Below, one piece after another: positions 22,823-58,846 of a stretch of 64,000 nt of DNA. The DNA is from a virus. Taxonomy: Duplodnaviria; Heunggongvirae; Uroviricota; Caudoviricetes. Made by a program: the position numbers and the translations under genes. Every line of letters starts with the position of its first letter. The first letter of the stretch is position 1. The DNA is taken from the IMG/VR virus record IMGVR_UViG_3300031998_000007, one strand, 5' to 3'. The notes beneath the pieces were generated by a model that worked only from the letters and a program-made list of their open reading frames with translations, was not told the DNA's origin and searched no databases.

Positions 22823-24028
22823 ATGATAGAAATTCCGGGAAAATACTGTACGGCGAAGGTCTATACCGACAATGTCGAGGAGGCCGCGCTTAAACAGATA
22901 ATGAACTTGATGAACCAGCCGTTTGCGGCGGGTTCCAACTGCGCAATCATGCCCGACTGCCACGCGGGCGTGGGTTGCGTTATCGGCCTCACAGCAAAGA
23001 TTACCGACAAGGTGGTCCCGAACCTGGTGGGGGTGGATATCGGGTGTTCTATGCTTGTCCTCAAAGTGGACAAGTCGTTCGCGTTCGACCTGAAGCAGGT
23101 GGACAAGATTTGGCACCGCGACATCCCGTCCGGCATGAACCACCGCAAGTCCAAGCACAAGTATGCCGACAAGGCTGACCTCGAAAACATGATAGCCCCG
23201 GTGAACGTGGACAAGCTGAAACTGTCCATCGGGACACTCGGCGGGGGCAACCACTTCGGCGAAATCAACGTAGATGATGCGGGCAACCATTACATCGTCA
23301 TCCACTCCGGTTCCCGGCACCTCGGCATCGAGGTATGCCGCTATTACCAGGACCTCGCTATCAAGTATCACCGCAACGACCGTGCGGCGATGCAGGATGC
23401 CATCAAGCAGCTGAAGAAGGCTGGCCGCGAGCGCGAAATCGAGGAAACCTTGCAGAAGATGAACGCGGACCGTCCGGCAATCCCGAACGAGCTCGCCTAT
23501 CTCGAAGGCGCCCTCATGGAAGACTACCTGCATGACATGAAGATTGCGCAGGAGTTTGCCATCTGGAACCGCGAGGCAATGATGGACGTGTTGGTTGACG
23601 GCCTGGGTATCAAGCCAAGGTATGTGCTGGATAAGTGGTGTACCATGCACAATTACGTTGACTTGGAACATAGAATTTTGCGCAAGGGAGCAATCTCATT
23701 GCAGAAAGATGAGATTGCACTAATTCCGATGAACATGAGGGATGGTTCCCTTATCGTCCGCGGCAAGGGCAACTCCGACTGGAACTGTTCCGGTCCGCAC
23801 GGTGCCGGCCGTCTCATGTCCCGTTCCAAGGCCAAGGAGACGCTCAGGATGGAAGACTTCAAGGCTTCCATGGAAGGCATTTATACGACCTGCGTTTCGA
23901 CCGGGACGATTGACGAGAGCCCGATGGCCTACAAGCCGTTCGACGAAATCATGCGCAACATCGAGCCGACCGCCGACATCGTCGAGCGCATCCGCCCGAT
24001 CTACAACTTCAAGGCGTCGGAGGGATAA
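22823..24028 (+). CDS. rtcB: RtcB RNA 3'-phosphate/5'-OH ligase
   Basis: Motifs MPDCHAGVG, GGGNHFGE, HSGSRHLG, HNYV, SGPHGAGR diagnostic of the RtcB family. Confidence 0.9.
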   Translation: MIEIPGKYCTAKVYTDNVEEAALKQIMNLMNQPFAAGSNCAIMPDCHAGVGCVIGLTAKITDKVVPNLVGVDIGCSMLVLKVDKSFAFDLKQVDKIWHRDIPSGMNHRKSKHKYADKADLENMIAPVNVDKLKLSIGTLGGGNHFGEINVDDAGNHYIVIHSGSRHLGIEVCRYYQDLAIKYHRNDRAAMQDAIKQLKKAGREREIEETLQKMNADRPAIPNELAYLEGALMEDYLHDMKIAQEFAIWNREAMMDVLVDGLGIKPRYVLDKWCTMHNYVDLEHRILRKGAISLQKDEIALIPMNMRDGSLIVRGKGNSDWNCSGPHGAGRLMSRSKAKETLRMEDFKASMEGIYTTCVSTGTIDESPMAYKPFDEIMRNIEPTADIVERIRPIYNFKASEG

Positions 24029-25159: not shown

Positions 25160-27064
25160 ATGGACTACAAGAGAATATATGACATCTTCGTTGCCGACAG
25201 AAAGGCACACCCGACTACGGAACTGTATTCCAGCCTCCACCACATCATCCCGCTCGGGGACGGTGGCAAGGACTGCGAGGAGAACCTGGTTCGCCTTTCC
25301 ATCCGCGACCACCAGTTCGCCCACAAACTGATTGACCGCTTTACCGGGCGCAAGGCATGTCCCGAGTTCACCAGGTTTACTTCAAAGCGTCAGATTGCCG
25401 CAATGCAGAAGAACGGCATCGACCCGAAACGCGCAAAGCGTGCCAAGGCCGGTGTCGGAAAGTTCCGCCTGTGGCTGAATGATACGGCCAAGACCCTTGC
25501 CGATGACTTTTCCCAGCAGATCTGCGAAAGGGCCGCTGAGGCTAACCCGGGAATGTCCGTGGTTCCGTTCATTACCAAGCAGTCCTTCCCGATCTGGCTG
25601 TCCGCGCTTAACGGGCTGAGCAAGCACTTCGTCGTCAGTACCCAGAGCGACGAAAACCAGGCGGTCGGCCCGGGCATCAAGATGAGGGCGGGCGAAGTCA
25701 TCCATCTCGGGATGGAGAGCGAAATCGAGCTCGTGGTGAAGAATGTCGGGGAATATCTCAAAGGCAACCTCATGATGGCGATTACCGACGGCGTGGCCCG
25801 CGCATACGCATTTACCCGCGCCACCGAGAAGGACCGGGAAATGTTCATCAACACGGCCACCCGCATGATGCGCATTACCCTCGGCCAGCTGAAGGCCACT
25901 TACCGCGTAATCGAAATCCGCCATGTGTATGAAGTCGCCGACCGCTATGTCACCCGAGTGGTGAATGCCGCAATCATCGACCGCGGGGTGACCGAGTATA
26001 TCGACATGCTCACCCATCCGGTCCTGACGGAAAATGTTGATAAGGTGTTCGGAATGTTGGCAACCCTTGCTGACGAGGCTCCCGTCGATCCGGTCCTCGG
26101 TAACACGATGCACCTTATCGTAAAATACGCGCTCGACAAGTATGTTGACCCGGGCTATTCGATGTCCGGCGACCTGCGCAAGGGCATCGTCTATTGCGCA
26201 TGCAACGACCTTGCGAGAAAACTCGCAACGAAAAAAGACGTACTCGCCACGCATGACCTGAATAAGCTCACGTTCCACGCATGGCGTGAGGTGTTCGGTG
26301 TCCTGTTCGGCAGCATCGCCGACGCAGAAAAGTCCGCGCCCGGCGTCCCGGACTTGCAGGCGGCATATCGCACCTGCACCGACGAAGGTCTCCATGACGA
26401 CATCATGGCCGGCCTCCCGGTCGCCAATGAGCGTATTACCGCATGTCTCGTCGGGATGGTGGCTGCGAAGCTGCGCCCGCATGTGGATGACGGGATGCTT
26501 ACCCAGGAAGAGTTTGACTTTGCAATCGAACCGCGCAGGGTAATGTCTGTCGTCATGCCGGAACTGCAGACCTACACGAAGACGCTGAAAGATGCCAAGA
26601 CCAGGCTCCCGCTTGACCAGTTTGCCAAGAAGTGCCTGTTCGGGTATGCAACGTCATATTCCCGCAAGATTATCCTCTACATGCTCGGCAAGGATGTGAC
26701 CGAGGAGACCTATGGCCGCATTGCCGGTCTTGACGAGAAGTATATCACTGCCACGTTTACGGCGAAGTGCCGTCTCAATGTCGGCATGGTCACTGCAGCC
26801 GTCGAGCCCGGGGCATGTTTCCAGCTTCCGGTCCCGTTCCATGCGATGATCAAGAAGGCAATCGACGACATTAGCATGTTTACTCAGATTTCTAAGGCCA
26901 AGGCCATGCTTCTCAAATCGGAAATCTCCGCGGAACTCGGTAAGCGTATCATGGAAGACGTTTCCCTCCGTCGCCCGACGAGCGTCCAGTTCAACAATGT
27001 CTTTAAAGAAATCCGCCTGATTACCGCCGAGCATGTCCAGAAGGTTCTCGGGGGTGACAAATGA
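25160..27064 (+). CDS. large protein with N-terminal HNH nuclease motif
   Basis: HHIIPLGDGGKDCEENLVRLSIRDHQFAH (HNH); the remaining ~550 aa are unassigned. Confidence 0.6.
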   Translation: MDYKRIYDIFVADRKAHPTTELYSSLHHIIPLGDGGKDCEENLVRLSIRDHQFAHKLIDRFTGRKACPEFTRFTSKRQIAAMQKNGIDPKRAKRAKAGVGKFRLWLNDTAKTLADDFSQQICERAAEANPGMSVVPFITKQSFPIWLSALNGLSKHFVVSTQSDENQAVGPGIKMRAGEVIHLGMESEIELVVKNVGEYLKGNLMMAITDGVARAYAFTRATEKDREMFINTATRMMRITLGQLKATYRVIEIRHVYEVADRYVTRVVNAAIIDRGVTEYIDMLTHPVLTENVDKVFGMLATLADEAPVDPVLGNTMHLIVKYALDKYVDPGYSMSGDLRKGIVYCACNDLARKLATKKDVLATHDLNKLTFHAWREVFGVLFGSIADAEKSAPGVPDLQAAYRTCTDEGLHDDIMAGLPVANERITACLVGMVAAKLRPHVDDGMLTQEEFDFAIEPRRVMSVVMPELQTYTKTLKDAKTRLPLDQFAKKCLFGYATSYSRKIILYMLGKDVTEETYGRIAGLDEKYITATFTAKCRLNVGMVTAAVEPGACFQLPVPFHAMIKKAIDDISMFTQISKAKAMLLKSEISAELGKRIMEDVSLRRPTSVQFNNVFKEIRLITAEHVQKVLGGDK

Positions 27065-27607: not shown

Positions 27608-27985
27608 ATGGATTGGGAAATTACCGGCTATGACAGGTTCTGTGGGGAGATTTCCAGCCCGCCGATCGGCGATGGCGCTGAACCGCAGAAGACCCCGCAC
27701 GAGATAATCTCGGAAACGTTCATGTTCTACGGGGAAATGAACCCGGCGAAGATGAACGGTTTCTGCCGTGACCGCATGCGCACGGTATGTTTCAATTCGT
27801 TGCGGGCCGCACTCGGACTGTCCCCCAGCATCCAGGGCGACCTTGTCATATCGAAGCTGGTCGGCGCCTTCTACGGCCATTACGGCAGCGTGTCGGACTT
27901 CGACATGATCGTGTCGCTCTATGACATGCCGCTGAAAAAGACCGTCGAATACATCAACGGCCTTGATCCCACTAAGGTAATGTAG
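27608..27985 (+). CDS. hypothetical protein
   Basis: 125 aa ORF ending next to the tRNA array. Confidence 0.45.
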   Translation: MDWEITGYDRFCGEISSPPIGDGAEPQKTPHEIISETFMFYGEMNPAKMNGFCRDRMRTVCFNSLRAALGLSPSIQGDLVISKLVGAFYGHYGSVSDFDMIVSLYDMPLKKTVEYINGLDPTKVM

Positions 27986-28059
27986 AGCACTCGGAAGGGC
28001 TCGAACCTTCGCATGGGGGCTTTGCAGGCCCCTGCCTTGACCAACTTGGCTACGAGTGC
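27986..28059 (-). tRNA. tRNA-Cys(GCA)
   Basis: Manual fold: acceptor GCACTCG/CGAGTGC, anticodon loop CTGCAAA, T-arm GGTTCGAGCCC. Confidence 0.7.
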
Positions 28060-28070
28060 ATAAGATGTAG

Positions 28071-28152
28071 TCCCTTCGGGGAGAATCGAACTCCCACGCC
28101 TTTCAGCACAAGGGTTTGAACCGAGCGCGTCTACCAGTTCCGCCACGAAGGG
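28071..28152 (-). tRNA. tRNA-Leu(CAA), type II, weak anticodon stem
   Basis: Acceptor CCCTTCG/CGAAGGG, D-arm GCGGAACTGGTAGACGCG, loop TTCAAAC, long variable arm; anticodon stem has 2 mismatches. Confidence 0.5.
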
Positions 28153-28155
28153 GTA

Positions 28156-28226
28156 TTGGGCGGTGACGGCTCGAACGTCATCCGAGGGGTTCAAAGCCCC
28201 TAGTGCTACCATTACACCACGGCCCA
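28156..28226 (-). tRNA. tRNA-Gln(TTG)
   Basis: U1:A72 as in bacterial tRNA-Gln; anticodon stem AGGGG/CCCCT, loop CTTTGAA; one C:C mismatch in the acceptor. Confidence 0.6.
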
Positions 28227-28236
28227 AAAATTTTAG

Positions 28237-28320
28237 TCGGCAGGGCGGGACTCGAACCCGCACGTCCTTTCGGACACCGCATCCTGAGTGCGGCGCGGCT
28301 ACCAATTACGCCACCTGCCG
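28237..28320 (-). tRNA. tRNA-Leu(CAG), type II
   Basis: Acceptor CGGCAGG/CCTGCCG, anticodon loop CTCAGGA, variable stem GTCC-GAAA-GGAC, T-arm GCGGGTTCGAGTCCCGC. Confidence 0.7.
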
Positions 28321-28325
28321 ATTAG

Positions 28326-28407
28326 TCGGCCATGAGGGCATCGAACCCACACGTCTTGCGACAGACGATCTTAAATCGTCCGCGTCTGCCAATTCCGCCA
28401 ATAGCCG
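28326..28407 (-). tRNA. tRNA-Leu(TAA), type II
   Basis: Anticodon arm GACGA-TTTAAGA-TCGTC; U:U mismatch in the T-stem. Confidence 0.6.
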
Positions 28408-28411
28408 ATTA

Positions 28412-28495
28412 TCTCGTCGGTGGGACTCGAACCCACACGCCCTTTCGGGCACAGGCCCCTCAAACCTGCGCGTCTACCAATTCCGCCACGACGAG
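28412..28495 (-). tRNA. tRNA-Leu(GAG), type II
   Basis: Anticodon arm CAGGT-TTGAGGG-GCCTG; variable arm GCCC-GAAA-GGGC; T-arm GTGGGTTCGAGTCCCAC. Confidence 0.7.
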
Positions 28496-28501
28496 GAATA
28501 G

Positions 28502-28576
28502 GGTGACCGACGGGACTCGAACCCGCAACGGCTGCCTTCACAGGGCAGGGCTCCACCAGTTGAGCTACGGCGCACC
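28502..28576 (-). tRNA. tRNA-His(GTG) with G-1 and a bulged acceptor-stem nucleotide
   Basis: G-1:C73, D-arm GCTCAACTGGTGGAGC, anticodon arm CTGCC-CTGTGAA-GGCAG. Acceptor pairs only if one C is bulged. Confidence 0.5.
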
Positions 28577-28592
28577 ATAAGTGCCGATGTTT

Positions 28593-28718
28593 TTATTGTA
28601 GGAGAATCGGAGCTCCGGTAACTTGATGACAACAATGGCCCGGTAATAGCAAGCCAAGCACGGTCAGGGAAACGACCGCGAGGAGCAGGAGCCAGAATGT
28701 GATGTTGCCGCGTACCAT
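28593..28718 (-). CDS. small hydrophobic peptide (41 aa) inside the tRNA array
   Basis: MVRGNITFWLLLLAVVSLTVLGLLLPGHCCHQVTGAPILLQ; GGAG 7 nt before the ATG; below the ORF-track size cutoff. Confidence 0.3.
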   Translation of the reverse strand: MVRGNITFWLLLLAVVSLTVLGLLLPGHCCHQVTGAPILLQ

Positions 28719-28750
28719 GAGGATACTCCGTTAGTAAGAAAAATTCGTAG

Positions 28751-28839
28751 AGGAGACAGCAGGATTCGAACCTGCGGGGGCTTTGAGGGCCCCACGGCGT
28801 TAGCACCGCCGCGCCTTAAACCAGCTCGGCCATGTCTCC
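28751..28839 (-). tRNA. tRNA-Ser(GCT), type II
   Basis: Acceptor GGAGACA/TGTCTCC, anticodon arm CGGCG-GTGCTAA-CGCCG, long variable arm, T-arm GCAGGTTCGAATCCTGC. Confidence 0.7.
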
Positions 28840-28849
28840 AAATTTTTAG

Positions 28850-28938
28850 TGGGCAGGACAGGATTCGAACCTGTGATGTTTACCCAAAGGGACCTGATTT
28901 ACAGTCAGGCTGCTTCAAACCAGCTTGCATACCTACCC
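28850..28938 (-). tRNA. tRNA-Tyr(GTA), type II
   Basis: Anticodon arm CCTGA-CTGTAAA-TCAGG; long variable arm; T-arm ACAGGTTCGAATCCTGT. Confidence 0.65.
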
Positions 28939-28950
28939 AAAATGTCTTCG

Positions 28951-29034
28951 CGGAAGCGGAGGGAGTCGAACCCCCAAGCCCTTGCGGAACCACGGTTTTC
29001 AAGACCGCTTGAGTCGCCAGTCTCTTGCGCTTCC
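28951..29034 (-). tRNA. tRNA-Ser(TGA), type II
   Basis: Acceptor GGAAGCG/CGCTTCC with G73; anticodon loop CTTGAAA; T-arm GGGGGTTCGACTCCCTC. Confidence 0.6.
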
Positions 29035-29038
29035 ATAG

Positions 29039-29111
29039 CTCCACCTCCTGGACTCGAACCAGGGACCATCCGATTAACAGTCGGGCGCTCTACCAACTGA
29101 GCTAAGGTGGA
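29039..29111 (-). tRNA. tRNA-Asn(GTT)
   Basis: U1:A72, D-arm GCTCAGTTGGTAGAGC, anticodon loop CTGTTAA, T-arm CTGGTTCGAGTCCAG; resembles E. coli tRNA-Asn. Confidence 0.75.
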
Positions 29112-29127
29112 ATAAAAATCACGTCCA

Positions 29128-29925
29128 TTACGGTGTTGATTGGTTGGGATTTGCCCATATCCCACATTTATACGGGCCATATTTTGCCTCCCAGGCGGCA
29201 ATCCGGGATTTCAATTCTTCTAGCGTAATGGAGCATTTGGAACCCTTGGAAGTATTTTTGGTTTGCAAAATCAGTTTGCAATTCGCGGGATGCTCGATAA
29301 TCGTCGCGGGCACTTTATTGATGTAGCCCGCCTTTACGCTATACATGTGGTCGCGTGATACCCCGCCTGGGTTGTTGCCTTTATTGACGGGGCTGTACCA
29401 CCCATGTTTCTTTATCAATTCAAAATCAAACTCGTCTGGATAATCGGCAAGGTTGAATTTAAATTTGCATGCGTTCCTGTAGTTGATGAACTCGGCGGAA
29501 TACGCATTTGCACGTTGCCGTTTTCTGTACTCAATCCGGCATTGGTCCGAACAATATACACGGGTGTGCAATTTATGATGTATTTCAGCGCCGCAGTTTT
29601 TACAGCGCGTTACCGGAACCGAAATCCTGGTTCCCGCAACGATGGTTACTCTTTTGAGTTTTTCGCTAAGTTTTTGCCTTAACTCAGGTGTTCGTTCTCG
29701 ACCATTGGCACAGCTGCGTGAACAGTGGAGAGGCCATCTGCCTTTCTCATAGTCGATATTTCGTATCGCTTTTGTAAATTCTTTATCGCATTTGGTGCAT
29801 GTAAATGTATGTTCAGTTTTTGTTTGGTTATATTCTTTTATGCGGTGCATACTCAACTTGGCCTTTTCACGGCCTAGTTCAATATTTCGCCGATTTGCGG
29901 CTATTCGTTTTTCAGTGATAACCAT
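29128..29925 (-). CDS. HNH-type homing endonuclease with N-terminal zinc-ribbon motifs, AT-rich insertion inside the tRNA array
   Basis: CxxC pairs (CTKCDKEF, CKNCGAEIHH); C-terminal SRDHMYSVKAGY...HPANCKLILQTKNTSKGSK (HNH). Local GC clearly below the window average. Confidence 0.5.
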   Translation of the reverse strand: MVITEKRIAANRRNIELGREKAKLSMHRIKEYNQTKTEHTFTCTKCDKEFTKAIRNIDYEKGRWPLHCSRSCANGRERTPELRQKLSEKLKRVTIVAGTRISVPVTRCKNCGAEIHHKLHTRVYCSDQCRIEYRKRQRANAYSAEFINYRNACKFKFNLADYPDEFDFELIKKHGWYSPVNKGNNPGGVSRDHMYSVKAGYINKVPATIIEHPANCKLILQTKNTSKGSKCSITLEELKSRIAAWEAKYGPYKCGIWANPNQSTP

Positions 29926-29943
29926 AAGAATATCTCCATTTAG

Positions 29944-30016
29944 TGCCAGGAACTGGACTCGAACCAGTATCTGAGGCTTTTCAGACCCCCGCCGTGACCA
30001 TCTTGGCTATCCTGGC
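29944..30016 (-). tRNA. tRNA-Phe(GAA)
   Basis: Acceptor GCCAGGA/TCCTGGC, anticodon loop CTGAAAA, T-arm ACTGGTTCGAGTCCAGT. Confidence 0.65.
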
Positions 30017-30027
30017 ATAAAGTTTAG

Positions 30028-30100
30028 TAGCCCCTGCCGGATTCGAACCGACGTTCCTTGGCTGAAAACCAACTGTCCTAGTCCACTAGACGAAGGGGCC
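30028..30100 (-). tRNA. tRNA-Glu(TTC)
   Basis: Near-identical architecture to E. coli tRNA-Glu (CCCCTTCGTCTAG...), anticodon loop TTTTCAG, T-arm GTCGGTTCGAATCCGGC. Confidence 0.7.
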
Positions 30101-30103
30101 ATA

Positions 30104-30180
30104 TAGGCTATACTGGGATCGAACCAGTGACCTCGGGATTCGTAGTCCCGCGCTCTAAAATCCGGCTGAGCTAATAGCCT
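30104..30180 (-). tRNA. tRNA-Arg(ACG) with enlarged D-loop
   Basis: Anticodon arm CGGGA-CTACGAA-TCCCG as in E. coli argV; D-loop carries an extra TTT. Confidence 0.6.
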
Positions 30181-30188
30181 GAAAGTAA

Positions 30189-30261
30189 TGGACCCGGTGG
30201 GTAACGATCCCATCACAGTAACTGTGCCACAGTCACTCGCCACCATGGATCATGCGAGCCC
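30189..30261 (-). tRNA. tRNA-Ala-like (GGC), G3:U70, atypical D-region
   Basis: Acceptor GGGCTCG/CGGGTCC with G3:U70; anticodon arm GTGACT-GTGGCAC-AGTTAC; unusual T-loop ATCGTTA; D-region CATGATCC... does not form a normal stem. Confidence 0.4.
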
Positions 30262-30322
30262 AAAATAAAATCAACACCGTAATGTCAATATGCTGAATGG
30301 TTTCTCGAACCATTCGTGTTCG

Positions 30323-30396
30323 TGGACCGCTAGGGGCTCGAACCCTACACACCTACCTTGCGAAGGTAGATCGCCACCGGAGGAACATGGCAGCCC
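30323..30396 (-). tRNA. tRNA-Ala-like (CGC), G3:U70, atypical D-region
   Basis: Acceptor GGGCTGC/GCGGTCC with G3:U70; anticodon arm CTACC-TTCGCAA-GGTAG; T-arm TAGGGTTCGAGCCCCTA. Confidence 0.45.
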
Positions 30397-30410
30397 AAAT
30401 TTGTTTTTCG

Positions 30411-30485
30411 TGGACCCGGTGGGGCTCGAACCCACCACAACCGGCTTGCAAAGCCAGCTCGCCTCCAAGCGGATCATGCGAGCCC
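30411..30485 (-). tRNA. tRNA-Ala-like (TGC), G3:U70, atypical D-region
   Basis: Acceptor GGGCTCG/CGGGTCC; anticodon arm CTGGC-TTTGCAA-GCCGG (as in E. coli alaT); T-arm GTGGGTTCGAGCCCCAC; shares 15-nt 5' and 13-nt 3' ends with the GGC copy. Confidence 0.45.
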
Positions 30486-30500
30486 AAATGTTTGCCGCCT

Positions 30501-30540
30501 AACGAAAGAACCCCGGTTCAGTTTTCCTGTACCGGGGTTC
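30501..30540 (-). terminator. hairpin terminator between the HD-hydrolase gene and the tRNA array (minus)
   Basis: gaaccccggt-13 nt loop-accggggttc, followed on the minus strand by CTTTCGTT. Confidence 0.4.
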
Positions 30541-30797: not shown

Positions 30798-31352
30798 CTA
30801 CATGAAGAAATCTGCATACATTTCGGTGGTCTGTTCGTCCTCGGAAAGGGTTGCGCGGAACTCCGCGAGGCGGCTGCTGAGGTAGTTGAACTCCTTCTGG
30901 TACCTGTCGTAGCGCTCGTAGTCCTTGTCGCTCTTCAAGTTGTTGCCGACAATCGTCATGTTGTCTTCGAGGTCGGCCAGCTTGATCTTCGTCGTGATGA
31001 GGTTCTCGCCGACCTTCTTGATGTAGTCGTCCCTGCCGAGGCTCTTGCGCCTGGTGAGGATTTCTACGCATTTCCACACGACCTCCGGGAAATAGAGCAT
31101 GAGGTCCGATGTGGTCATGTTCCCTTCCTCTATGACATCGTGGAGATAGGCGATGGCGGTGATTGAGTCGTCCCCATACTGGCGGTCAAGCGCATTGGCC
31201 ACCCGGGTCGGGTGCTGCACGTATTCCTGGCCGCTCTTGTCCAGCTGGCCCTCGTGCGCGAACGTTGCGAACTCGCATGCCTTCTGGACCATGCTTCCGT
31301 CGAACCTGTTCATTCGTTTAAGGAAAGCCTTGATTTCGTCGCGTGAACGCAT
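30798..31352 (-). CDS. small alarmone hydrolase, (p)ppGpp pyrophosphohydrolase HD domain (RelA/SpoT/Mesh1-like)
   Basis: FATFAHEGQLDKSGQEYVQHPTRVA...AIAYLHDVIEEG, the HD hydrolase signature of SpoT/Mesh1. Confidence 0.7.
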   Translation of the reverse strand: MRSRDEIKAFLKRMNRFDGSMVQKACEFATFAHEGQLDKSGQEYVQHPTRVANALDRQYGDDSITAIAYLHDVIEEGNMTTSDLMLYFPEVVWKCVEILTRRKSLGRDDYIKKVGENLITTKIKLADLEDNMTIVGNNLKSDKDYERYDRYQKEFNYLSSRLAEFRATLSEDEQTTEMYADFFM

Positions 31353-31815: not shown

Positions 31816-32445
31816 TTATCCTACCCAGATTTGGACGGGATGGCCGGAACCGTCGTCGGGGACTACCGCGACCATCTCGTAACCGTTGTTGATCATGCCG
31901 ACCATGGTCTCGCGGTCGTCCGCGTCAACCACGGTGAACGTAGTGATGCCGAGCTTCGCTATCTGCGCACGGAGCTCCGTCCCGAGGCCCATGCCGCGGT
32001 AGCCCTCGTCAACTGCGAAGAACTCCTGCTGGAGCATGCCGTCGAAGTTCTTGTCCGTGAGGAGGGAGTAAATCTCCACCGGGCGGAAGCCCTGGTAGGA
32101 TTCCTGCGTCGGGTCGACGATTGTCGCGACCGCCACGGGATTGTCCCCGTTCTCCGCGTCGCAGATATACACGACGGTGTCGGAGTTGAGGAGACGGTCG
32201 AGTGTCGCCGGGACCGGGCGGGTCGCCACCTCGGCATCCTTCGGCGTGGACGAATACTTCCCGTCGATGATTGCGACGAGCTGGTTCAGCCGTTCTTCTG
32301 GTATCTTGTCCGGGGTCTCGACGTAGGCCTTGAACCGGTTCGGGTCAAGTTTCTCCTGCTTTTCCTCGGACTGCTCCGACGCGGCGTCACATGCCGCGGC
32401 GAGGTTGTTCGCGCTGTCGTAATCGTAGAGTGGGTCGTTCATCAT
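31816..32445 (-). CDS. GNAT family N-acetyltransferase
   Basis: Motif A FFAVDEGYRGMGLGTELRAQI. Start at MMNDPL: the ORF-tool N-terminal 113 aa are Arg-rich junk. Start overlaps the upstream stop (TAATG). Confidence 0.65.
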   Translation of the reverse strand: MMNDPLYDYDSANNLAAACDAASEQSEEKQEKLDPNRFKAYVETPDKIPEERLNQLVAIIDGKYSSTPKDAEVATRPVPATLDRLLNSDTVVYICDAENGDNPVAVATIVDPTQESYQGFRPVEIYSLLTDKNFDGMLQQEFFAVDEGYRGMGLGTELRAQIAKLGITTFTVVDADDRETMVGMINNGYEMVAVVPDDGSGHPVQIWVG

Positions 32446-33137
32446 TAACCGCCTATGTTGGAGTCGGCCTCGAACCATGTCTGGAAGTCCGGGGCCATCG
32501 CGAGCTTCTGGTGATACATCTTGTTGATGGGGGCGACGAGTGCGCCGATGGAGCGCTGCTTGGCCTGCTTGAGTTCGGCCTCGGCCTGTTCCATCGCGGC
32601 AGTGTCGTTGGTGTCCTTTGCCGCGGCGAGTGCCTTCTGCGCCTTCTCGAAAGCCGGGCTGTGGAGTTCGCCGGAGACGATCTTCTTGTAGAGGTCGGTC
32701 GCCTTGCGCCACCCTTCCGTGTTGATCGGGTTCGGGTTGTCCGCCTGGTCGCGGTCGAGTTCCTGCGTGATGAGCACGAGACATTCCTGTCCGAGTTCGG
32801 CAATCTGCTCGTCAGTCATGCCGCGGTCGGCCTGGACGGAGAACTCCGCGGTCTTCAACGGGTCCACCTGGAGGCCCGGGTTCCCGGCACATGCCGTGAG
32901 GGATGCCCCGAGGACGCCTGCCGCAAGGAGGGTGCGCATGAACTTGCCCGCCTTGGCGACACCGCTTTTCAGGGTGGTCAGCTTGTCCTGGAGGCTCTCG
33001 AACTGGGCCTGCGGGATTTCACCCTTGCTGTGTGCGGAGACCAGCATGGCCTCCTGCACGCTTTCGAGAATGGCCGCCTTGCGCAGGTCAGCGCCCTGTT
33101 TCATGTCGTCGATGGTGTTGTAAACGCTCCAATCCAT
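32445..33137 (-). CDS. putative lipoprotein (lipobox LTAC), start uncertain
   Basis: MRTLLAAGVLGASLTACAGN signal peptide plus lipobox lies at residue 67 of the long ORF, so the true start may be the internal ATG at 32939; CTATAAACTATGGG motif sits upstream of 33137. Confidence 0.45.
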   Translation of the reverse strand: MDWSVYNTIDDMKQGADLRKAAILESVQEAMLVSAHSKGEIPQAQFESLQDKLTTLKSGVAKAGKFMRTLLAAGVLGASLTACAGNPGLQVDPLKTAEFSVQADRGMTDEQIAELGQECLVLITQELDRDQADNPNPINTEGWRKATDLYKKIVSGELHSPAFEKAQKALAAAKDTNDTAAMEQAEAELKQAKQRSIGALVAPINKMYHQKLAMAPDFQTWFEADSNIGG

Positions 33138-44157: not shown

Positions 44158-44283
44158 AATCCCCGATTTTGTGCACATTTGTGCACTAACCTTGGCACCG
44201 TTTTTATTATAAACAATGACTACCCGCCGACGGAAACGGTCCTCCCGCACCGCCGGCCCAACTTCAACCTAAAGGATTCCTAC

Positions 44284-46854
44284 ATGGAAGAATTACAGGA
44301 CACGAAAATGTCGGAGCGCTCGTTCTTGAAGCAGGTCAAGAAGAAGGATGGCCCCCGGCAGAAGTTTGATCCCCTTAAAATCGAACGCTGCATCACCCAC
44401 GCACTCAATGACGCGAAGTGCACGCTCCCCCAGGAAAAAATCGAGGAAATGACCGGTGATGTGGTTGATTTGCTGTATGACTTGAAGCAGAAGTGCGTGA
44501 GCAATGAATCGGTTGCCATCGCTGTAAAGAAAGTTTTACGCGAAGTCAGCATGCCCGCCTATGATGCCTATGTCATCTTCCGCAACAACCGCGACCGCGA
44601 ACGCACCCTCCAGTCCCCCCTTATCAAGACCGTCCGCGAAATCAAGCATGCCGAGTTGCAGAGCTCCAATACCCTCCGCGACAACGCGAACGAGGCTGGC
44701 GGCACCCCGGCCGGCATGTTCGGCAAGATCGCCGGCGAAACCAACAAGATGTATAACCTGCTCGACAATGTGAGCAGGAAGTATGCGGAAGAGCACACCA
44801 ACGGCTACCTCCACATCCACGACCTCAACATGTATGACCTGACCTTCAACTGCCTCTTTGCCCCGGTAGGCAAGAAGTTGAGGACAGGCTTCGATTCCGG
44901 TACCGGCTTCCAGCGTCCGGCACAGACCATCCAGAGTGCTGCCGCGCTTACCGCCGTGATTCTCCAGTTGCAGTCCAACCAGCAATACGGCGGCATCGCC
45001 TGCGACAACTTCGATTTCGAGCTCGCCCCGTTCGTGGACCGTTCCTTCCGCAGGAACCTTGCCATCGAACTGAATGCGATGGCCGAATATCGGGAAGAGG
45101 ATGAGAACCTCGCCGAATATCGCACGCTCCCCGAAGAGTCCGACGACATCGAGAAGACTGTCAAGCGTATCGCGAAGGTGCTCGGCAAGGCCAATGTGTC
45201 CATGAACCAGCCGAGGAAGAAGCTCTATTGCAGTTTCCCGAAGAAGTGCGTCGACCGCGCATGGCTCTACACCGATGCCGATACGCATCAGGCAATGGAG
45301 GCCCTTGTCCACAACTTGAACTCCTTGCAGTCTCGCTCTGGAAACCAAGTTCCGTTCTCGTCGTTGAACTTTGGCCTTGATACTTCCAACTGCGGACGAA
45401 TGGTCAGCAAGAACCTCATGCGTGCCCAGTATGAGGGCATGGGCGACGGCCTGACCGCCATCTTCCCGATCCTCATCTTCAAGCTCATGAAGGGTTATAC
45501 CAAGAACCCGACCGACCCGAACTACGACCTTTACGAACAGGCCGTCGAATGTCTGGCCCGCCGTTTCTACCCGAACTTCGTGTCGGTGGACAGCACCTTC
45601 AACAAGCCCTATGTGAAGTACCGGACCAAGGAAATCGAACTCGCCGATGGGTTGCGCAACATCAAGCTCCGCGGAAAGGATGAGGGTTTCGCTGAATACC
45701 ACGGGATCATCGAACGCTCCGAATGCCCGGAATATGAATACGAGGTGGAGCCGGGCGAATACTGGGAAATCGTCGAATACGATGAAAAGAAGCTCTCCCT
45801 TCGCAAGCTGATCGAGAACACCACCATTGCGACGATGGGATGCCGCACCCGTGTCATCGGCAATGTCAACGGCCCGGAACAGACTACCGGCCGTGGCAAC
45901 TTTGCCTTCCATACGATGAACCTCCCGCGCCTTGCCATCGAATCCCATATCGAGAAGGACAGTACCGACGAACGCATCGCACGCTTCTACGAGAAGCTCG
46001 ACGCATTGCTCGACGATGCCAAGGAAAGCCTTGTTGAACGCTTTAACCTCGTGTGCCAGAAGACCTACGAGCGCTATCCGTTCACGATGCAGGAAGGTTT
46101 GTACCTCACTTCCGATGACAAGAAGCATGAACTGTCCGATACCATCGCCGAGGTGATGAAGCAGTCCACGCTCTCCATCGGCTATATCGGCATCGCCGAG
46201 ACGATCAACCTCCTTACCGGCAAGATTTACGGTGTCGATCATGAGGTGGATGGACTTGCGGTGGCCATCGTGAAGCACATCCGTGACTTCTGCGACGCTA
46301 CCCAGAAGAAGACCCACATGAACTGGTCCTGCTTCGCCACCCCGGCAGAAGCGGTCGCGGGCCGGTTCGCCACCATCGACGCCAACAAGTTCGCCGACAA
46401 CAAGAAACTTGCCGATGTGAACCTTGAACGCATCTTCGGAAAGGGCTACTACACCAATTCCCACATGATGGACTTCTCTCTCGATGTCTCCCTCGACGAG
46501 AAGATCAAGGTGGAAGCCCCGTTCCATGCCCTCACCAATGCCGGGCATATATTCTACTACAAGTTGAACGGCGACTTGACGAAGAACATCCCGGCAGTGA
46601 AGGCTGCCATCGACGCCATGTATGACGGCAACCTTGGGTACTTCACCGTCACGATGGATTCGGACGACTGTCTCAAGTGCGGCTACCATGGCATCATCGA
46701 CAATGTATGCCCGAAGTGCGGCTGCAAGGATGAACGCTATTTCGTCCGTGTCAGGCGAATTACCGGATATTTAACCGGTTCACCGCGGAAGAGTATTCTG
46801 GATGCTTGGTGCGATGGAAAGAAGAAGGAGCTCATCGATCGGCACAATATCTAG
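44284..46854 (+). CDS. nrdD: anaerobic ribonucleoside-triphosphate reductase (class III RNR)
   Basis: C-terminal zinc ribbon CLKCGYHGIIDNVCPKCGC and glycyl-radical motif VRVRRITGYLTG; N-terminal ATP-cone-like region; start chosen at MEELQD with an AAGGA ribosome-binding site. Confidence 0.8.
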   Translation: MEELQDTKMSERSFLKQVKKKDGPRQKFDPLKIERCITHALNDAKCTLPQEKIEEMTGDVVDLLYDLKQKCVSNESVAIAVKKVLREVSMPAYDAYVIFRNNRDRERTLQSPLIKTVREIKHAELQSSNTLRDNANEAGGTPAGMFGKIAGETNKMYNLLDNVSRKYAEEHTNGYLHIHDLNMYDLTFNCLFAPVGKKLRTGFDSGTGFQRPAQTIQSAAALTAVILQLQSNQQYGGIACDNFDFELAPFVDRSFRRNLAIELNAMAEYREEDENLAEYRTLPEESDDIEKTVKRIAKVLGKANVSMNQPRKKLYCSFPKKCVDRAWLYTDADTHQAMEALVHNLNSLQSRSGNQVPFSSLNFGLDTSNCGRMVSKNLMRAQYEGMGDGLTAIFPILIFKLMKGYTKNPTDPNYDLYEQAVECLARRFYPNFVSVDSTFNKPYVKYRTKEIELADGLRNIKLRGKDEGFAEYHGIIERSECPEYEYEVEPGEYWEIVEYDEKKLSLRKLIENTTIATMGCRTRVIGNVNGPEQTTGRGNFAFHTMNLPRLAIESHIEKDSTDERIARFYEKLDALLDDAKESLVERFNLVCQKTYERYPFTMQEGLYLTSDDKKHELSDTIAEVMKQSTLSIGYIGIAETINLLTGKIYGVDHEVDGLAVAIVKHIRDFCDATQKKTHMNWSCFATPAEAVAGRFATIDANKFADNKKLADVNLERIFGKGYYTNSHMMDFSLDVSLDEKIKVEAPFHALTNAGHIFYYKLNGDLTKNIPAVKAAIDAMYDGNLGYFTVTMDSDDCLKCGYHGIIDNVCPKCGCKDERYFVRVRRITGYLTGSPRKSILDAWCDGKKKELIDRHNI

Positions 46855-46874
46855 CGTATTTTTACTTAAAATAA

Positions 46875-46903
46875 GTGCAGCCGTCGAACGGCTGCACTTT
46901 TTG
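46875..46903 (+). terminator. intrinsic terminator after nrdD
   Basis: gtgcagccg-tcgaa-cggctgcac followed by TTTTTG. Confidence 0.65.
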
Positions 46904-46920
46904 TTTGGTTTCTAAACTGT

Positions 46921-46935
46921 ATTTTGCTATATTTC
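46921..46935 (+). promoter_or_regulatory. extended -10 promoter motif ATTTTGCTATATTTC
   Basis: Upstream of the gene at 46968. Confidence 0.5.
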
Positions 46936-46967
46936 CATGAGAAGATAATTGATTTTCGGGGATACCT

Positions 46968-48878
46968 ATGGAGCTCAATTTCATTTGTAAAATTTGTAAT
47001 AAGCCGTTTGGCAAAACCGGGTTGACTAATCACATCCAGCGCACCCATAAAATGTCATATAAGGAGTATTATGACACTTTCATTGATGGAAGCGAGCACC
47101 TGTGTCCCTATTGCGGCAAAGAGTGTGGGTTTGTTAGCCATTATGGTTATTACGAAACTTGTTGTGATCCCACATGTGTCAGAAAGGCGCAGCACCGGAC
47201 AATGTATGCTCGATATGGTAAGGCCTGTCGCCACCCAGACAAAATTAAGGTAAAACCAATTATTGACTATCCATACCATTGCGAAATATGTGGTCAAGGC
47301 ACAAAGAATTTGCCGATGCTGAATAGGCATCTGAAAAAATATCACCCTGATGTAGATATTGAAAACTACTATAATACATATCTGGGAGTTAAACCACAAG
47401 TATGTGAGGTATGCGGTGGCCGAGCAAAGTGGTTGGGAACGCATTACCATAATGTTTGCGGATGCCCGGAGTGTACTAGCGTATTGCGTGGCAAGAATAA
47501 TGCAATGAATAACCCGGTCTACCGCAAAAAAGCGAGGGATGCGCTAATTGCATTGCCGGACGAAAAAAAGCGGGCAATTCGCGAAAAGGTGGAGCAAACT
47601 TGCTTGGCACGCTTTGGGTATCGGCATAATTGGAGTTCCCCCGAACTGCGTGAGGCTGGCCAGTACGCCACATGCAAGGCACTATATGGCGATCGGAATT
47701 ACCATAATGTTGCGCAAATGCAGAATACTTGCACAGAACGGTTTGGCGTTAGGTCGTTTTCGCAGACTGTTTCGTTTCAATCAAAAATGTGGCATAAATT
47801 CAAGGTGGGTGAAATTACATTTGACTCGTCGTATGAGTATGCACTATATAATTTCTTGAATGCCGCTAAATTGCCATTTATTTATCATCCGAAGGAATCT
47901 ATTCGTTATGAATATGCCGGTAAAGAACACATGTTCTTTCCAGATTTCAAAATAAATGGCCATTTTTACGAGGTTAAGGGCGAGCACCTGTATAAATATA
48001 TGCAGACCCCGAACACTAAGGAGCATGCGAAACTGGAGTGCATTTTAGCAAACAATATCACACTTATAACAAAATGCGATGTATTTGCGTTTATTGATGC
48101 CGTATTTGGAAAATCGTTGAGTATTGATGCTATCGTTGAGCAATGCTTGCATACCGAGTTCCCGGGCAATGCGAAATGGCCTGCATCACATCCCATTTGG
48201 GATTGCTTTGTTCCCGGGCATACTGATCCCCGCACTGCATGGGCAGACCCGGTGTTGGTTCGTAAAGGTGTTCTTAATTTAGTAAAGACATTGAACGACG
48301 CTCTCGTTTCTGGAAAATATCCGGCATTCTGCACAAGATATATCAAATCTCTGCTGAGTGGAAATTACTTTGATAAGGTCCTGGATAGGTTTACTATTGC
48401 AAAGATCGCGCCGAAAGTAACTGCATTACACGAAACCGAACTGTTGCGAATTATTGAGGAATCCGGTGTAGATTTAAGCCCCGGTGTGTATTGCCCAATG
48501 GCTGGGTTTGGCGGCATAGTTCGCGGTGTCAGACGGTGGTTTGAAACTCGCGGTATGTGCGGAGATATTGAGGCCTATGACATCAATGACCGGTTCTGTA
48601 ATTGGTATGGGTGGACTAGGCGTGATGTTTTGGCACAGGTGGTGCACACGAACAAGGTGGTTGTTGTTTGCCCGCCGTTTGGAAAGCAGTATGAGCACTG
48701 GAAGGGAACACCGGACGAAATGTCGGATATTACATTTAAACAATGGGTTTCCTTGATTAAGGAGCATGTCATTGCACCGAATTACATATTTATTGGCCCA
48801 GAAGTCGATGACGGCAAGAACCGTTGTGGCCTATTTAAACGAAAGGTTGGAATTTCATTATATAAGGATGGTATATGA
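46968..48878 (+). CDS. multi zinc-finger protein with PD-(D/E)xK nuclease motif; candidate homing endonuclease in an AT-rich insertion
   Basis: Repeated CxxC...H/C fingers (CKICNK..HIQRTH, CPYCGK, CEICGQ, CEVCGG); FFPDFKINGHFYEVKGEH (PD...EVK). Local GC much lower than the flanks; sits between nrdD and nrdG. Confidence 0.5.
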   Translation: MELNFICKICNKPFGKTGLTNHIQRTHKMSYKEYYDTFIDGSEHLCPYCGKECGFVSHYGYYETCCDPTCVRKAQHRTMYARYGKACRHPDKIKVKPIIDYPYHCEICGQGTKNLPMLNRHLKKYHPDVDIENYYNTYLGVKPQVCEVCGGRAKWLGTHYHNVCGCPECTSVLRGKNNAMNNPVYRKKARDALIALPDEKKRAIREKVEQTCLARFGYRHNWSSPELREAGQYATCKALYGDRNYHNVAQMQNTCTERFGVRSFSQTVSFQSKMWHKFKVGEITFDSSYEYALYNFLNAAKLPFIYHPKESIRYEYAGKEHMFFPDFKINGHFYEVKGEHLYKYMQTPNTKEHAKLECILANNITLITKCDVFAFIDAVFGKSLSIDAIVEQCLHTEFPGNAKWPASHPIWDCFVPGHTDPRTAWADPVLVRKGVLNLVKTLNDALVSGKYPAFCTRYIKSLLSGNYFDKVLDRFTIAKIAPKVTALHETELLRIIEESGVDLSPGVYCPMAGFGGIVRGVRRWFETRGMCGDIEAYDINDRFCNWYGWTRRDVLAQVVHTNKVVVVCPPFGKQYEHWKGTPDEMSDITFKQWVSLIKEHVIAPNYIFIGPEVDDGKNRCGLFKRKVGISLYKDGI

Positions 48879-58336: not shown

Positions 58337-58846
58337 ATGTCAAACGAAAATGAAACCGTTGTTGTCCCGCTCTCCAAGATGCTCGTAACCGAAAAGAAGC
58401 CGTATGAAGGCGAACTCGAACGCCCGCCGTTCGCTGCCGACTGGCCGTTCCTCCCGAGCGAAATCCCCGGCGTTGACGTTTCCAACGCATCCACTTCGAT
58501 CACTCCCGACATGGACATCAAGGCCCTCGCCATGGCTGCCCTCCGAATCAATCGCGACGCGAAGCGCTATGTCGCAATCAACACAAACCAGGGCACCGGT
58601 AGCCATACCGCGAAGCTCCTCGCCAAGAACATCGCGTGCGCCCTCAAGGCGGCGCTCAACGCCAGCTACGTCGGCAAGAACCTCGGCGACGCGATTGGTG
58701 ATGCCGCATGCCTGGAAGAAATCCGTAATGCGGGCAGCGACACTACCATTTATGACAAGCACGACCGCGTCAACAAGGCAATCGAACAGGCCAGGATGCT
58801 CAGGCTGTTCTTCATCGTCAATACACTCAACGATTTCAGGGTATGA
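58337..58846 (+). CDS. hypothetical protein
   Basis: Start at MSNENET (the ORF-tool N-terminus MGFCYISG is the promoter translated). Confidence 0.5.
   Translation: MSNENETVVVPLSKMLVTEKKPYEGELERPPFAADWPFLPSEIPGVDVSNASTSITPDMDIKALAMAALRINRDAKRYVAINTNQGTGSHTAKLLAKNIACALKAALNASYVGKNLGDAIGDAACLEEIRNAGSDTTIYDKHDRVNKAIEQARMLRLFFIVNTLNDFRV

Follow-up and report, generated by a model that had tools for sequence, protein, structure and literature searches.

A phage tRNA array of 17 genes including three alanine tRNA genes with a non-canonical core

Identification of the tRNA array

In a window of 64,000 nucleotides (the whole stretch of DNA analyzed here) from the virus record IMGVR_UViG_3300031998_000007 (IMG/VR, Caudoviricetes), an array of 17 transfer RNA (tRNA) genes was found, all located on the minus strand between positions 27985 and 30485. 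We are rather confident that this is a genuine phage tRNA cluster, which consists of 13 canonical genes, a tRNA-His gene whose acceptor stem is bulged and three tRNA-Ala genes with an apparently rewired core, is interrupted by an HNH-type open reading frame (ORF), and most likely serves as a phage-made tRNA supply that keeps translation running.

ARAGORN called 13 tRNA genes in the 64-kb window, all on the minus strand (27985-30180) and none outside the array, namely Cys-GCA, Leu-CAA, Gln-TTG, Leu-CAG, Leu-TAA, Leu-GAG, Ser-GCT, Tyr-GTA, Ser-TGA, Asn-GTT, Phe-GAA, Glu-TTC and Arg-ACG. Twelve of these 13 genes were confirmed by the Rfam tRNA model RF00005 at its gathering threshold, with 41-68 bits. 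A gene was regarded as canonical if its cloverleaf was recognized by ARAGORN and/or by RF00005 with at least 29 bits, which applies to 13 genes, 12 of them by both tests and Ser-UGA by ARAGORN alone. The other four of the 17 loci, tRNA-His and the three tRNA-Ala genes, are not ordinary tRNA genes. The original prediction, made from the sequence alone, had placed 17 minus-strand tRNA genes within 2.5 kb. With the 13 ARAGORN calls, the Rfam match of tRNA-His and the comparative evidence for tRNA-Ala, its coordinates and all of its anticodons hold; the non-canonical structure of the three Ala genes had been missed.

The array has a density of 6.8 genes per kb and represents 11 of the 20 amino acids. 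Its isoacceptor sets had been described as complete for Leu, Ala and Ser, which is true of Ala; Leu lacks UAG, and Ser lacks GGA and CGA. The 2.5 kb also contain an 800-bp HNH ORF and an ORF of 41 codons. The T-arm motif GGTTCGA recurs as had been noticed before, with 15 copies on the minus strand (28001-30432), 14 of which are T arms and one of which is part of an intergenic hairpin (30305-30311).

Alanine tRNA genes with a non-canonical core

The genes for tRNA-Ala (GGC), tRNA-Ala (CGC) and tRNA-Ala (UGC) are located at 30189..30261, 30323..30396 and 30411..30485 on the minus strand. None of them was called by ARAGORN, and none matched RF00005 even at E <= 10 in a search of 310 nt. The Rfam matches obtained at E <= 10 were weak ones to transfer-messenger RNA (tmRNA) or mascRNA, such as the tmRNA matches of the Ala-UGC gene with 19.5 and 11.3 bits at a gathering score of 47.

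In a mutual alignment, the three genes share the acceptor start GGGCU, the pair G3:U70 and the discriminator A73. Each of the anticodons UGC, CGC and GGC is located in an intact 7-nt loop. The anticodon stems are fully compensated (CUGGC/GCCGG, CUACC/GGUAG and UGACU/AGUUA), as are the T stems among the three window copies, and the acceptor pairs 6-67 and 7-66 of Ala-CGC are a compensated swap relative to the other copies. The T loop of Ala-GGC (AUCGUUA) is of a type which is also present in L045, a related phage contig with a 66% identical exonuclease (loci used for comparison are designated by L and a number).

The D region, in contrast, differs from that of ordinary tRNAs. It has the near-invariant sequence CAUGWUCC-N2-4-GG-N-GGCGA and carries C8, C14, C15 and G21 in place of the canonical U8, A14, R15 and A21. 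The canonical stem of the pairs 10-25 to 13-22 is impossible, as it would place G opposite G at 11-24 and W opposite C at 12-23, and none of the three genes has the canonical D arm (U8, A14, R15, A21 and these pairs). They are nevertheless judged to be real, non-canonical tRNA genes and not pseudogenes, because G3:U70, A73, the Ala anticodon loops and covarying stems are kept.

Two other identities were considered and rejected. A tmRNA is not compatible with a length of 73-75 nt, the lack of a tag reading frame and of pseudoknots and the absence of an ARAGORN tmRNA call; the match of Ala-UGC to RF00023 collapses model positions 1-374 onto 78 nt. A mimic of Y RNA was represented by sub-threshold matches only.

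A family of Ala and Trp tRNA genes with the variant core

The family was defined by the D module [C/A/U]AUG-W-W-CC-N2-5-GG-N1-5-GGCGA together with a Watson-Crick or GU pair 26:44 and a UG(N)G variable region, and all three Ala genes of the window fit this definition. An exact-pattern scan of IMG/VR detected the module in at least 32 contigs of 7.9-424 kb, nearly all within large tRNA arrays, and ARAGORN calls just two module copies among the first-pattern contigs. Relaxing either half of the pattern gave a few more true members and much noise, the module being almost invariant. A broader scan with a cloverleaf-checking parser yielded at least 108 distinct module genes, all of them Ala or Trp, and the number of module-bearing IMG/VR contigs exceeds 100. 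Among the matches listed, the Ala-type genes have A73 and G3:U70 with mostly UGC and a few CGC, GGC and AGC anticodons, and the Trp-type genes combine a CCA anticodon with G73.

Covariation was analyzed for 41 members. The pair G3:U70 and A73 occur in 41/41 of them, including the three window copies; G35, C36 and A37 of the anticodon loop are invariant as well, and U33 is kept in at least 90%. The acceptor stem, the 6-bp anticodon stem including 26:44 and the T stem strongly covary, with 95.6% of cells paired; shuffles reach 75%, and controls with slid partners no more than 52%. Double changes are seen in 13 pairs. Acceptor positions 6-7 are free to vary across the family and are compensated at 66-67. 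The covariance model R1, built from family sequences, scores the window genes at 77.9 bits (Ala-GGC), 80.7 bits (Ala-CGC) and 81.9 bits (Ala-UGC), all three being part of its training set. Members outside the training set (the second copies in L008 and L019, two further copies in L045, and L022b) reached 73.8-88.7 bits; the best other matches in 568 kb of phage loci, canonical tRNAs included, had at most 45 bits.

Among GenBank phages, the module was found by BLAST in Pseudomonas putida phages, where it is annotated as tRNA-Ala in three and unannotated or a 'hypothetical protein' in two, as well as in Pectobacterium phage Bobbio and Phaeobacter phage MD18. Bacillus phage Mater carries it in a Trp gene annotated as tRNA-Pseudo. 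A search of E. coli genomes for an E. coli-like variant Trp gene gave no match. Among 185,579 species genomes, the Ala version is almost confined to chromosomes of Pirellulales (Planctomycetota), with about 58 loci. Their module-bearing arrays contain up to 39 tRNA genes per 8 kb fetched, with the recurring order ...Val-GAC, Thr-GGT, variant Ala-UGC, Ala-GGC, Ser-GCT... Long tRNA arrays have already been reported in Planctomycetes (PMC8421152, PMC4758250).

In several arrays, for example those of L008, L019, L027, L024, L031 and the Pirellulales locus L068, the variant Ala-UGC gene is located beside canonical Ala-UGC genes. The window and L045 encode each of the three Ala isoacceptors in the variant form, and no canonical Ala gene is present in the available sequence. 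The tRNA genes of L045 comprise the variant Ala triple (UGC/CGC/GGC), after it Arg-ACG and Glu-UUC, and next Ile, Lys, Met, Asp, Val and Trp. Judged from these two gene orders, the lineage conserves the Ala triple and not the amino-acid repertoire.

Several further features were observed in the related arrays. Genes for tmRNA are located in or beside the tRNA arrays of related phage contigs (L131 16735-17079, L038 5465-5805, L015 7388-7778), and suppressor-type tRNAs occur in several arrays, with CUA ('Pyl' calls) in L005, L009 and L021 and UUA in L026. A long variable arm is the rule for bacterial tRNA-Leu, whereas numerous tRNA-Leu genes of Pirellulales chromosomal arrays and of some phage arrays (L068 1220-1911, L007 1891-2205 and other fetched arrays) measure just 73-77 nt; their variable region is short, which gives them a class-I-like shape, and A73 is kept. 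Proteins resembling Ro60/TROVE, with vWA-like motifs and about 500 aa (assigned by eye), are encoded near module arrays in L157 and L032, with two further loci for each. Ro60 is known to bind tRNA-like Y RNAs in bacteria.

Proposed structure of the variant core

A rewired core is a plausible model for these genes. In the D arm, U10·G24 and G11-C23 would be followed by a 2-base bulge at positions 12-13 and by the pairs C14-G22 and C15-G21, closing a short loop that still presents G18G19. The pair A25-U45 would stack on 26:44, which gives a 7-bp anticodon helix and leaves G46-N47-G48 as the variable region. In an alignment of 31 Ala and Trp sequences, 100% of the cells of this model are paired and every invariant base has a partner. 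Positions 12-13 are the only core positions that are free to be U or A, and RNAalifold independently proposes 14:22, 15:21 and 25:45. A scan in which 14, 15, 21 and 22 were left free returned three contigs with two distinct sequences, in which C15-G21 is replaced by U15-A21. The 15-21 pair is thus CG in 29 sequences and UA in two (L267 and L269), and it is the only pair with a double change, as no variation at all is seen in 10·24, 11-23, 14-22 and 25-45.

Three other pairings were rejected. A helix of U5-C8 with G22-A25, perfect in two window copies, is contradicted by positions 6-7, which vary (CG, GG, GC, CU, GU, UA) with compensation at 66-67 and a fixed GCGA. Pairing of C8-G11 with the UGUG of the variable loop is broken by L033 (AAUG with UGAG) and L030 (UGAG). 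A shifted 4-bp D stem (10·24, 11-23, 12·22, 13·21) pairs 93.9% of the cells, but leaves A12/A13 variants uncompensated and the change of C15 to U15 unexplained.

In the U15-A21 lineage (L267, L268 and L269), U48 replaces G48, which hints at a tertiary contact 15-21-48. The Trp member L163, which has U48 and an unchanged C15-G21, counts against such a contact. In a further tRNA-Trp gene (L004 6477-6552), the module contains 5 additional nt behind G18G19, AAUGUUCCAAGG-AUAUA-GGCGA; on its side 3′ of G19, the loop therefore tolerates different lengths, as canonical D loops do.

Other tRNA genes of the array

The remaining tRNA genes of the array are all encoded on the minus strand and, apart from tRNA-His and Ser-UGA, were found by both ARAGORN and RF00005 (RF00005 scores in brackets). 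The tRNA-Cys gene (GCA) is located at 27985..28059 (64.2 bits). It is followed by the class II gene for tRNA-Leu (CAA) at 28070..28152 (41.9 bits), by tRNA-Gln (UUG) at 28155..28227 (41.3 bits), whose acceptor stem has a C6·C67 mismatch according to its sequence, and by three further tRNA-Leu genes, CAG at 28236..28320 (53.7 bits), UAA at 28325..28407 (41.7 bits) and GAG at 28412..28495 (50.8 bits). All four tRNA-Leu genes (28070-28495) start with C1:G72 instead of the usual G1:C72, which may reflect preferences of the host leucyl-tRNA synthetase or RNase P.

The tRNA-His gene (GUG) at 28502..28576 was not called by ARAGORN and has a partial RF00005 match (28507-28570, model positions 5-66, 43.7 bits). 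According to its sequence, G-1 faces C73, the anticodon loop reads CUGUGAA, and the D and T arms are normal. The 5′ acceptor strand contains one extra C (GUG[C]GCCG opposite CGGUCAC), so that the stem needs a bulged base, and this extra C accounts for the missing ARAGORN call. The gene is identical in the independent Logan assembly L153.

Between tRNA-His and tRNA-Ser (GCU), which is located at 28750..28839 (52.6 bits), the ORF list contains a putative ORF of 41 codons (28593..28718, minus strand), the translation of which has a hydrophobic core. Next in coordinate order are the class II gene for tRNA-Tyr (GUA) at 28849..28938 (54.6 bits), tRNA-Ser (UGA) at 28950..29034 and tRNA-Asn (GUU) at 29038..29111 (67.8 bits). 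The Ser-UGA gene, called by ARAGORN, carries C8, and its top Rfam match is the tRNA-Sec model with 42.8 bits, which is under the gathering score of 47. On the other side of the HNH ORF, tRNA-Phe (GAA) at 29943..30016 (62.8 bits), tRNA-Glu (UUC) at 30027..30100 (49.7 bits) and tRNA-Arg (ACG) at 30104..30180 (60.7 bits) precede the Ala genes in coordinate order.

Neighboring genes and intergenic signals

The window also encodes baseplate wedge proteins, a Dda-like helicase, a gp46/47-like exonuclease, NrdD and a sigma factor. Its earlier description as part of a phage is supported by these genes, and the window derives from a large phage, probably of jumbo size, with T4-type baseplate and replication genes. 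No close relative was found among 50,697 GenBank phage records. Host inference by tRNA similarity was abandoned, as the tRNAs of the window are close to no fetched locus except its own assembly L153.

A free-standing ORF of 265 aa (29128..29925, minus strand) interrupts the array and matches phrog_23051 (E 9.8e-37) and phrog_1271, 'HNH endonuclease' (E 3.9e-8). A Pfam search gave no HNH match for it and only a weak one to the treble-clef family DUF2116. Its GC content at third codon positions (GC3) is 0.47 compared to about 0.78 for the phage genes, and by its sequence it appears to be a typical homing-endonuclease intruder. Further signs of mobile endonucleases are located at 44179-48878, 25160-27064 and 58843-60867 of the window. 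The profile match of NrdD is divided into two parts that leave residues 476-546 uncovered, and NrdD is followed by a homing-endonuclease-like ORF (46968-48878) with a GC3 of 0.45. In addition, a 634-aa protein has an N-terminal homing-endonuclease-like domain, and an EcoRI-type methylase contains a LAGLIDADG-like insert.

An RtcB RNA ligase of 401 aa is encoded at 22823..24028 on the plus strand (PF01139, E 3.6e-63, 214.7 bits at a cutoff of 27; NCBIfam RtcB models). The enzyme had been predicted upstream of the array and is real, but it belongs to a plus-strand gene block which ends at 27985 and is convergent on the array. One block of 0.2-1 Mb is among the contigs in which an identical RtcB is encoded.

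An HD protein of 184 aa of the small-alarmone-hydrolase type is encoded immediately upstream of the array and in the same direction (30798..31352, minus strand; PF13328 HD_4, E 5e-8, 33.3 bits at a cutoff of 27.2; phrog_990, E 5.5e-36). It has the hallmarks of this group, with a single HD_4 domain, about 180 aa and similarity to solved (p)ppApp/(p)ppGpp hydrolases. Among solved structures, it is closest to PDB 7smg, '(p)ppApp hydrolase' (E 4.5e-23), with Rel hydrolase domains and MESH1 next. Small alarmone hydrolases can undo alarmone- or pyrophosphate-based toxicity. The position of the gene beside the array is suggestive of a candidate counter to alarmone-type or tRNA-pyrophosphorylating toxins. 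According to a preprint (bioRxiv 10.1101/2024.07.05.602228), phage defence involves toxic alarmone synthetases, which pyrophosphorylate the 3′ ends of tRNAs. A 'GNAT' ORF at 31816-32784 (minus strand) with a weak Pfam match was rejected as a shadow ORF, based on its codon-position GC content and its translation rich in Arg, Gly and Pro.

Between Ala-CGC and Ala-GGC, a hairpin was read from the sequence at 30294..30314 on the minus strand, GAAUGGUU-CGAG-(A)AACCAUUC, behind which come TTGACA (30283-30288) and, after a spacer of 15 nt, TATTTT. A comparable hairpin with TTGACA...TATAAT behind it is located at 10546-10604 of L045, also between two variant Ala genes. The hairpin with TTGACA...TAT(A/T)(A/T)T in L045 and at 30262-30322 of the window suggests an internal pair of terminator and promoter. 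A second hairpin of 9 pairs, 7 of them G-C (GAACCCCGG / CCGGGGUUC), is located at 30508..30540 on the minus strand, just upstream of the first Ala gene; it has a 15-nt loop and is followed by UUUCGUU. In a scan for promoters and terminators, sites were no more numerous than in shuffles and the hairpin at 30294-30314 was not called; the loop of the second hairpin exceeds the limit of the terminator scan.

Possible roles of the array and of the variant core

The array would give the infected cell a phage-made tRNA supply and keep its translation running. RtcB would reseal breaks with 2′,3′-cyclic-phosphate and 5′-OH ends, and the HD enzyme perhaps contributes. The variant Ala genes would be decoding tRNAs, charged by alanyl-tRNA synthetase through G3:U70 and A73. 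While the gene calls, identity elements, covarying stems, occurrence of the module and families of the flanking proteins were observed directly, we infer expression, aminoacylation, the exact fold of the core and any role in counter-defence from the sequence. A long tRNA array of cyanobacteria is co-regulated with rtcB and adjoins a homing endonuclease (PMC8421152), and the role of keeping the tRNA pool working may by analogy parallel that of this array.

Several observations weigh against this reading. Nine amino acids have no tRNA gene in the window, none of the 17 genes encodes CCA as read from the sequence (0/17), and tRNA-His with its bulge or tRNA-Gln with its C·C mismatch may be defective. 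RtcB, being convergent, is not co-transcribed with the array. As to the variant core, the alignments were built from matches to patterns that fix part of the module, so that its invariance is partly selected for, and the model is supported by invariant bases and one compensatory event, seen in two sequences of probably one lineage. A scan with 10, 11, 23 and 24 left free returned no variants, and metagenome scans for variants at positions 11 and 10 gave no matches, with no positive control run in that collection.

The variant Ala-UGC gene may do something beyond the normal tRNA-Ala, because it adjoins a canonical Ala-UGC gene in many arrays. As a tentative proposal, in which we place limited confidence, the rewired D arm, the 7-bp anticodon helix and the 3-nt variable region could form a fixed core cassette that is confined to Ala and Trp tRNAs, moves among phages of unrelated hosts and into Pirellulales arrays, possibly does what a normal tRNA-Ala cannot, and would represent an undescribed alternative tRNA architecture. 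Possible special roles are an escape from a nuclease, a toxin or a modification dependence that reads the canonical core or, alternatively, altered decoding kinetics by analogy with D-arm mutants of tRNA-Trp. No description of a rewired-core Ala/Trp tRNA family was found in literature searches, which is not proof of novelty.

A tailored replacement of host tRNAs cleaved by anticodon nucleases similar to colicin E5, colicin D or PrrC, with RtcB repairing the cuts, was also considered, and it appears rather unlikely as the specific purpose of the array. The targets of colicin E5 are the tRNAs for Tyr, His, Asn and Asp; that of PrrC and PARIS is tRNA-Lys. RtcB is present, the small-alarmone-hydrolase-type HD gene adjoins the array, and tRNAs for Tyr, His, Asn, Arg and Glu are encoded. 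However, Asp and Lys genes are absent from the window, and some overlap with the targets is expected by chance where 11 of 20 amino acids are covered. The relative L045 has another repertoire beside the same block of Ala, Arg and Glu, and the amino-acid repertoire is therefore not a conserved design; the initial description of the array as an anticodon-nuclease target set is supported only in part. The anticodon loops carry no obvious escape mutations, as far as can be read with no host reference for comparison. On the other hand, tRNAs for hardly used codons (UUA is 1% of Leu) fit a replacement better than codon tuning, and phage tRNAs neutralize tRNA-targeting defences according to published work (PMC10264068, PMC11464382, PMC11555353).

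Compensation of codon usage, with tRNAs for codons that the phage uses more than its host, is an unlikely explanation for the array as a whole. Codon figures are those of the phage genes in the window. The Ala trio reads all four GCN codons, which make up 7.3% of codons; the two most frequent Leu codons, CUC (45%) and CUG (28%), have matching tRNAs in Leu-GAG and Leu-CAG, and Arg-ACG fits CGC/CGU, which account for 66% of Arg codons. In contrast, the codons read by Leu-UAA, Leu-CAA and Gln-UUG are rare (UUA 1%, UUG 7%, CAA 12%), and Leu-UAA and Gln-UUG are a poor fit to the codon usage of the phage itself. There is no dedicated tRNA with a GGA anticodon in the array for UCC, the commonest Ser codon (39%), and the abundant amino acids Asp, Val, Gly, Lys and Thr are without a tRNA gene in the window.

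It is improbable that the Ala-like elements are non-decoders, be it decayed pseudogenes, tRNA mimics that trap tRNA-binding toxins as decoys or sponges, or modules resembling tmRNA or Y RNA. They are rejected by standard tRNA models, the homologous Trp gene of Bacillus phage Mater is annotated as tRNA-Pseudo, the variant Ala-UGC beside a canonical one in several arrays suggests non-redundancy, and a sponge role has been proposed for array tRNAs (PMC8421152). However, the compensatory changes in three stems and a core that is invariant across phages of different bacterial phyla argue against decay, as do the retention of U33 and A37 and the restriction to Ala and Trp anticodons, each with its matching discriminator (A73 or G73). 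Exactly those three anticodons that cover all GCN codons are present both in the window and in L045, with no canonical Ala gene in the available sequence, and genes of 73-75 nt have neither a tmRNA tag ORF nor a pseudoknot.

Hardly probable is a cluster that is mainly selfish cargo, with homing endonucleases spreading tRNA blocks among co-infecting phages and a composition that reflects history: the HNH ORF of foreign composition inside the array, the further endonuclease-like ORFs of the window and the T4 SegB precedent (as cited in PMC8421152) fit it, and neighbor-protein clustering at 86 module-bearing loci gave no common partner, with homing endonucleases as the only recurring protein families (at most 10 loci each, types judged by eye), but such spread explains the arrangement and not the purifying selection on stems, identity elements and a complete Ala set.

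Relation to known tRNA clusters and atypical tRNAs

The array resembles known phage tRNA clusters, like the T4 region with SegB and those of T5 and of jumbo or 'huge' phages, in its dense same-strand genes, its large lytic-type phage, the interruption by free-standing homing endonuclease genes and the presence of some imperfect tRNAs. It differs from them in that all three Ala isoacceptors have a non-canonical core. Bacterial L-arrays (PMC8421152, PMC4758250) likewise have more than 2 tRNA genes per kb and a link with rtcB and a homing endonuclease; they are horizontally spread, and those of Pirellulales carry the same variant Ala-UGC gene. With its 17 genes in a phage, the array of the window falls outside the tRNA array unit of PMC4758250 (at least 20 genes, at least 2 per kb). 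Furthermore, the Pirellulales arrays have the variant core in Ala-UGC only, beside canonical Ala genes for GGC, CGC and sometimes a second UGC, unlike the window. The phage RNA ligase near tRNA genes is reminiscent of the repair of PrrC-cleaved tRNA-Lys by T4 Pnkp/Rnl1, whereas the window has RtcB on the opposite strand and no tRNA-Lys gene.

Atypical elongator tRNAs are represented by tRNA-Sec, tRNA-Pyl and allo-tRNAs, and the D-arm suppressor of Hirsh is a tRNA-Trp. In the proposed structure, the variant core shares with atypical elongators a longer anticodon helix, a shorter variable region and an altered D arm, with the contacts of G18G19 to the T loop kept. As in the case of the Hirsh suppressor, the module occurs in tRNA-Trp, where D-arm changes alter decoding. 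Unlike atypical elongators, the module genes have a normal 7-bp acceptor stem, a 5-bp T stem, no long variable arm and ordinary Ala or Trp identity, and no recoding is implied. To our knowledge, the sequence of the D module matches none of the tRNA-Sec, tRNA-Pyl, allo-tRNA and Hirsh classes. The tRNA-like domain of tmRNA has a G3:U70 acceptor, a T arm and Ala identity in common with the Ala genes of the window, which differ from tmRNA in their length of 73-75 nt, a full anticodon stem-loop and the lack of a tag frame and of pseudoknots.

Implications

An array of this kind is commonplace in large phages. The added value lies in a conserved alternative core of Ala and Trp tRNAs, which occurs in over 100 phage contigs and in chromosomes of planctomycetes. 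This core is mostly rejected by ARAGORN and by the Rfam tRNA model, and its annotation in cultured phages is inconsistent (tRNA-Ala, 'tRNA-Pseudo', 'hypothetical protein' or none). Phage tRNA repertoires are thus undercounted, and Ala would score as absent in the window. The family is a testable case for the question why phages carry tRNAs, since cultured phages of Pseudomonas putida, Bacillus and Phaeobacter have the module. If confirmed, the variant core would mean that the tRNA fold tolerates a second solution for the junction of D arm, variable region and anticodon helix, which is under strong selection.

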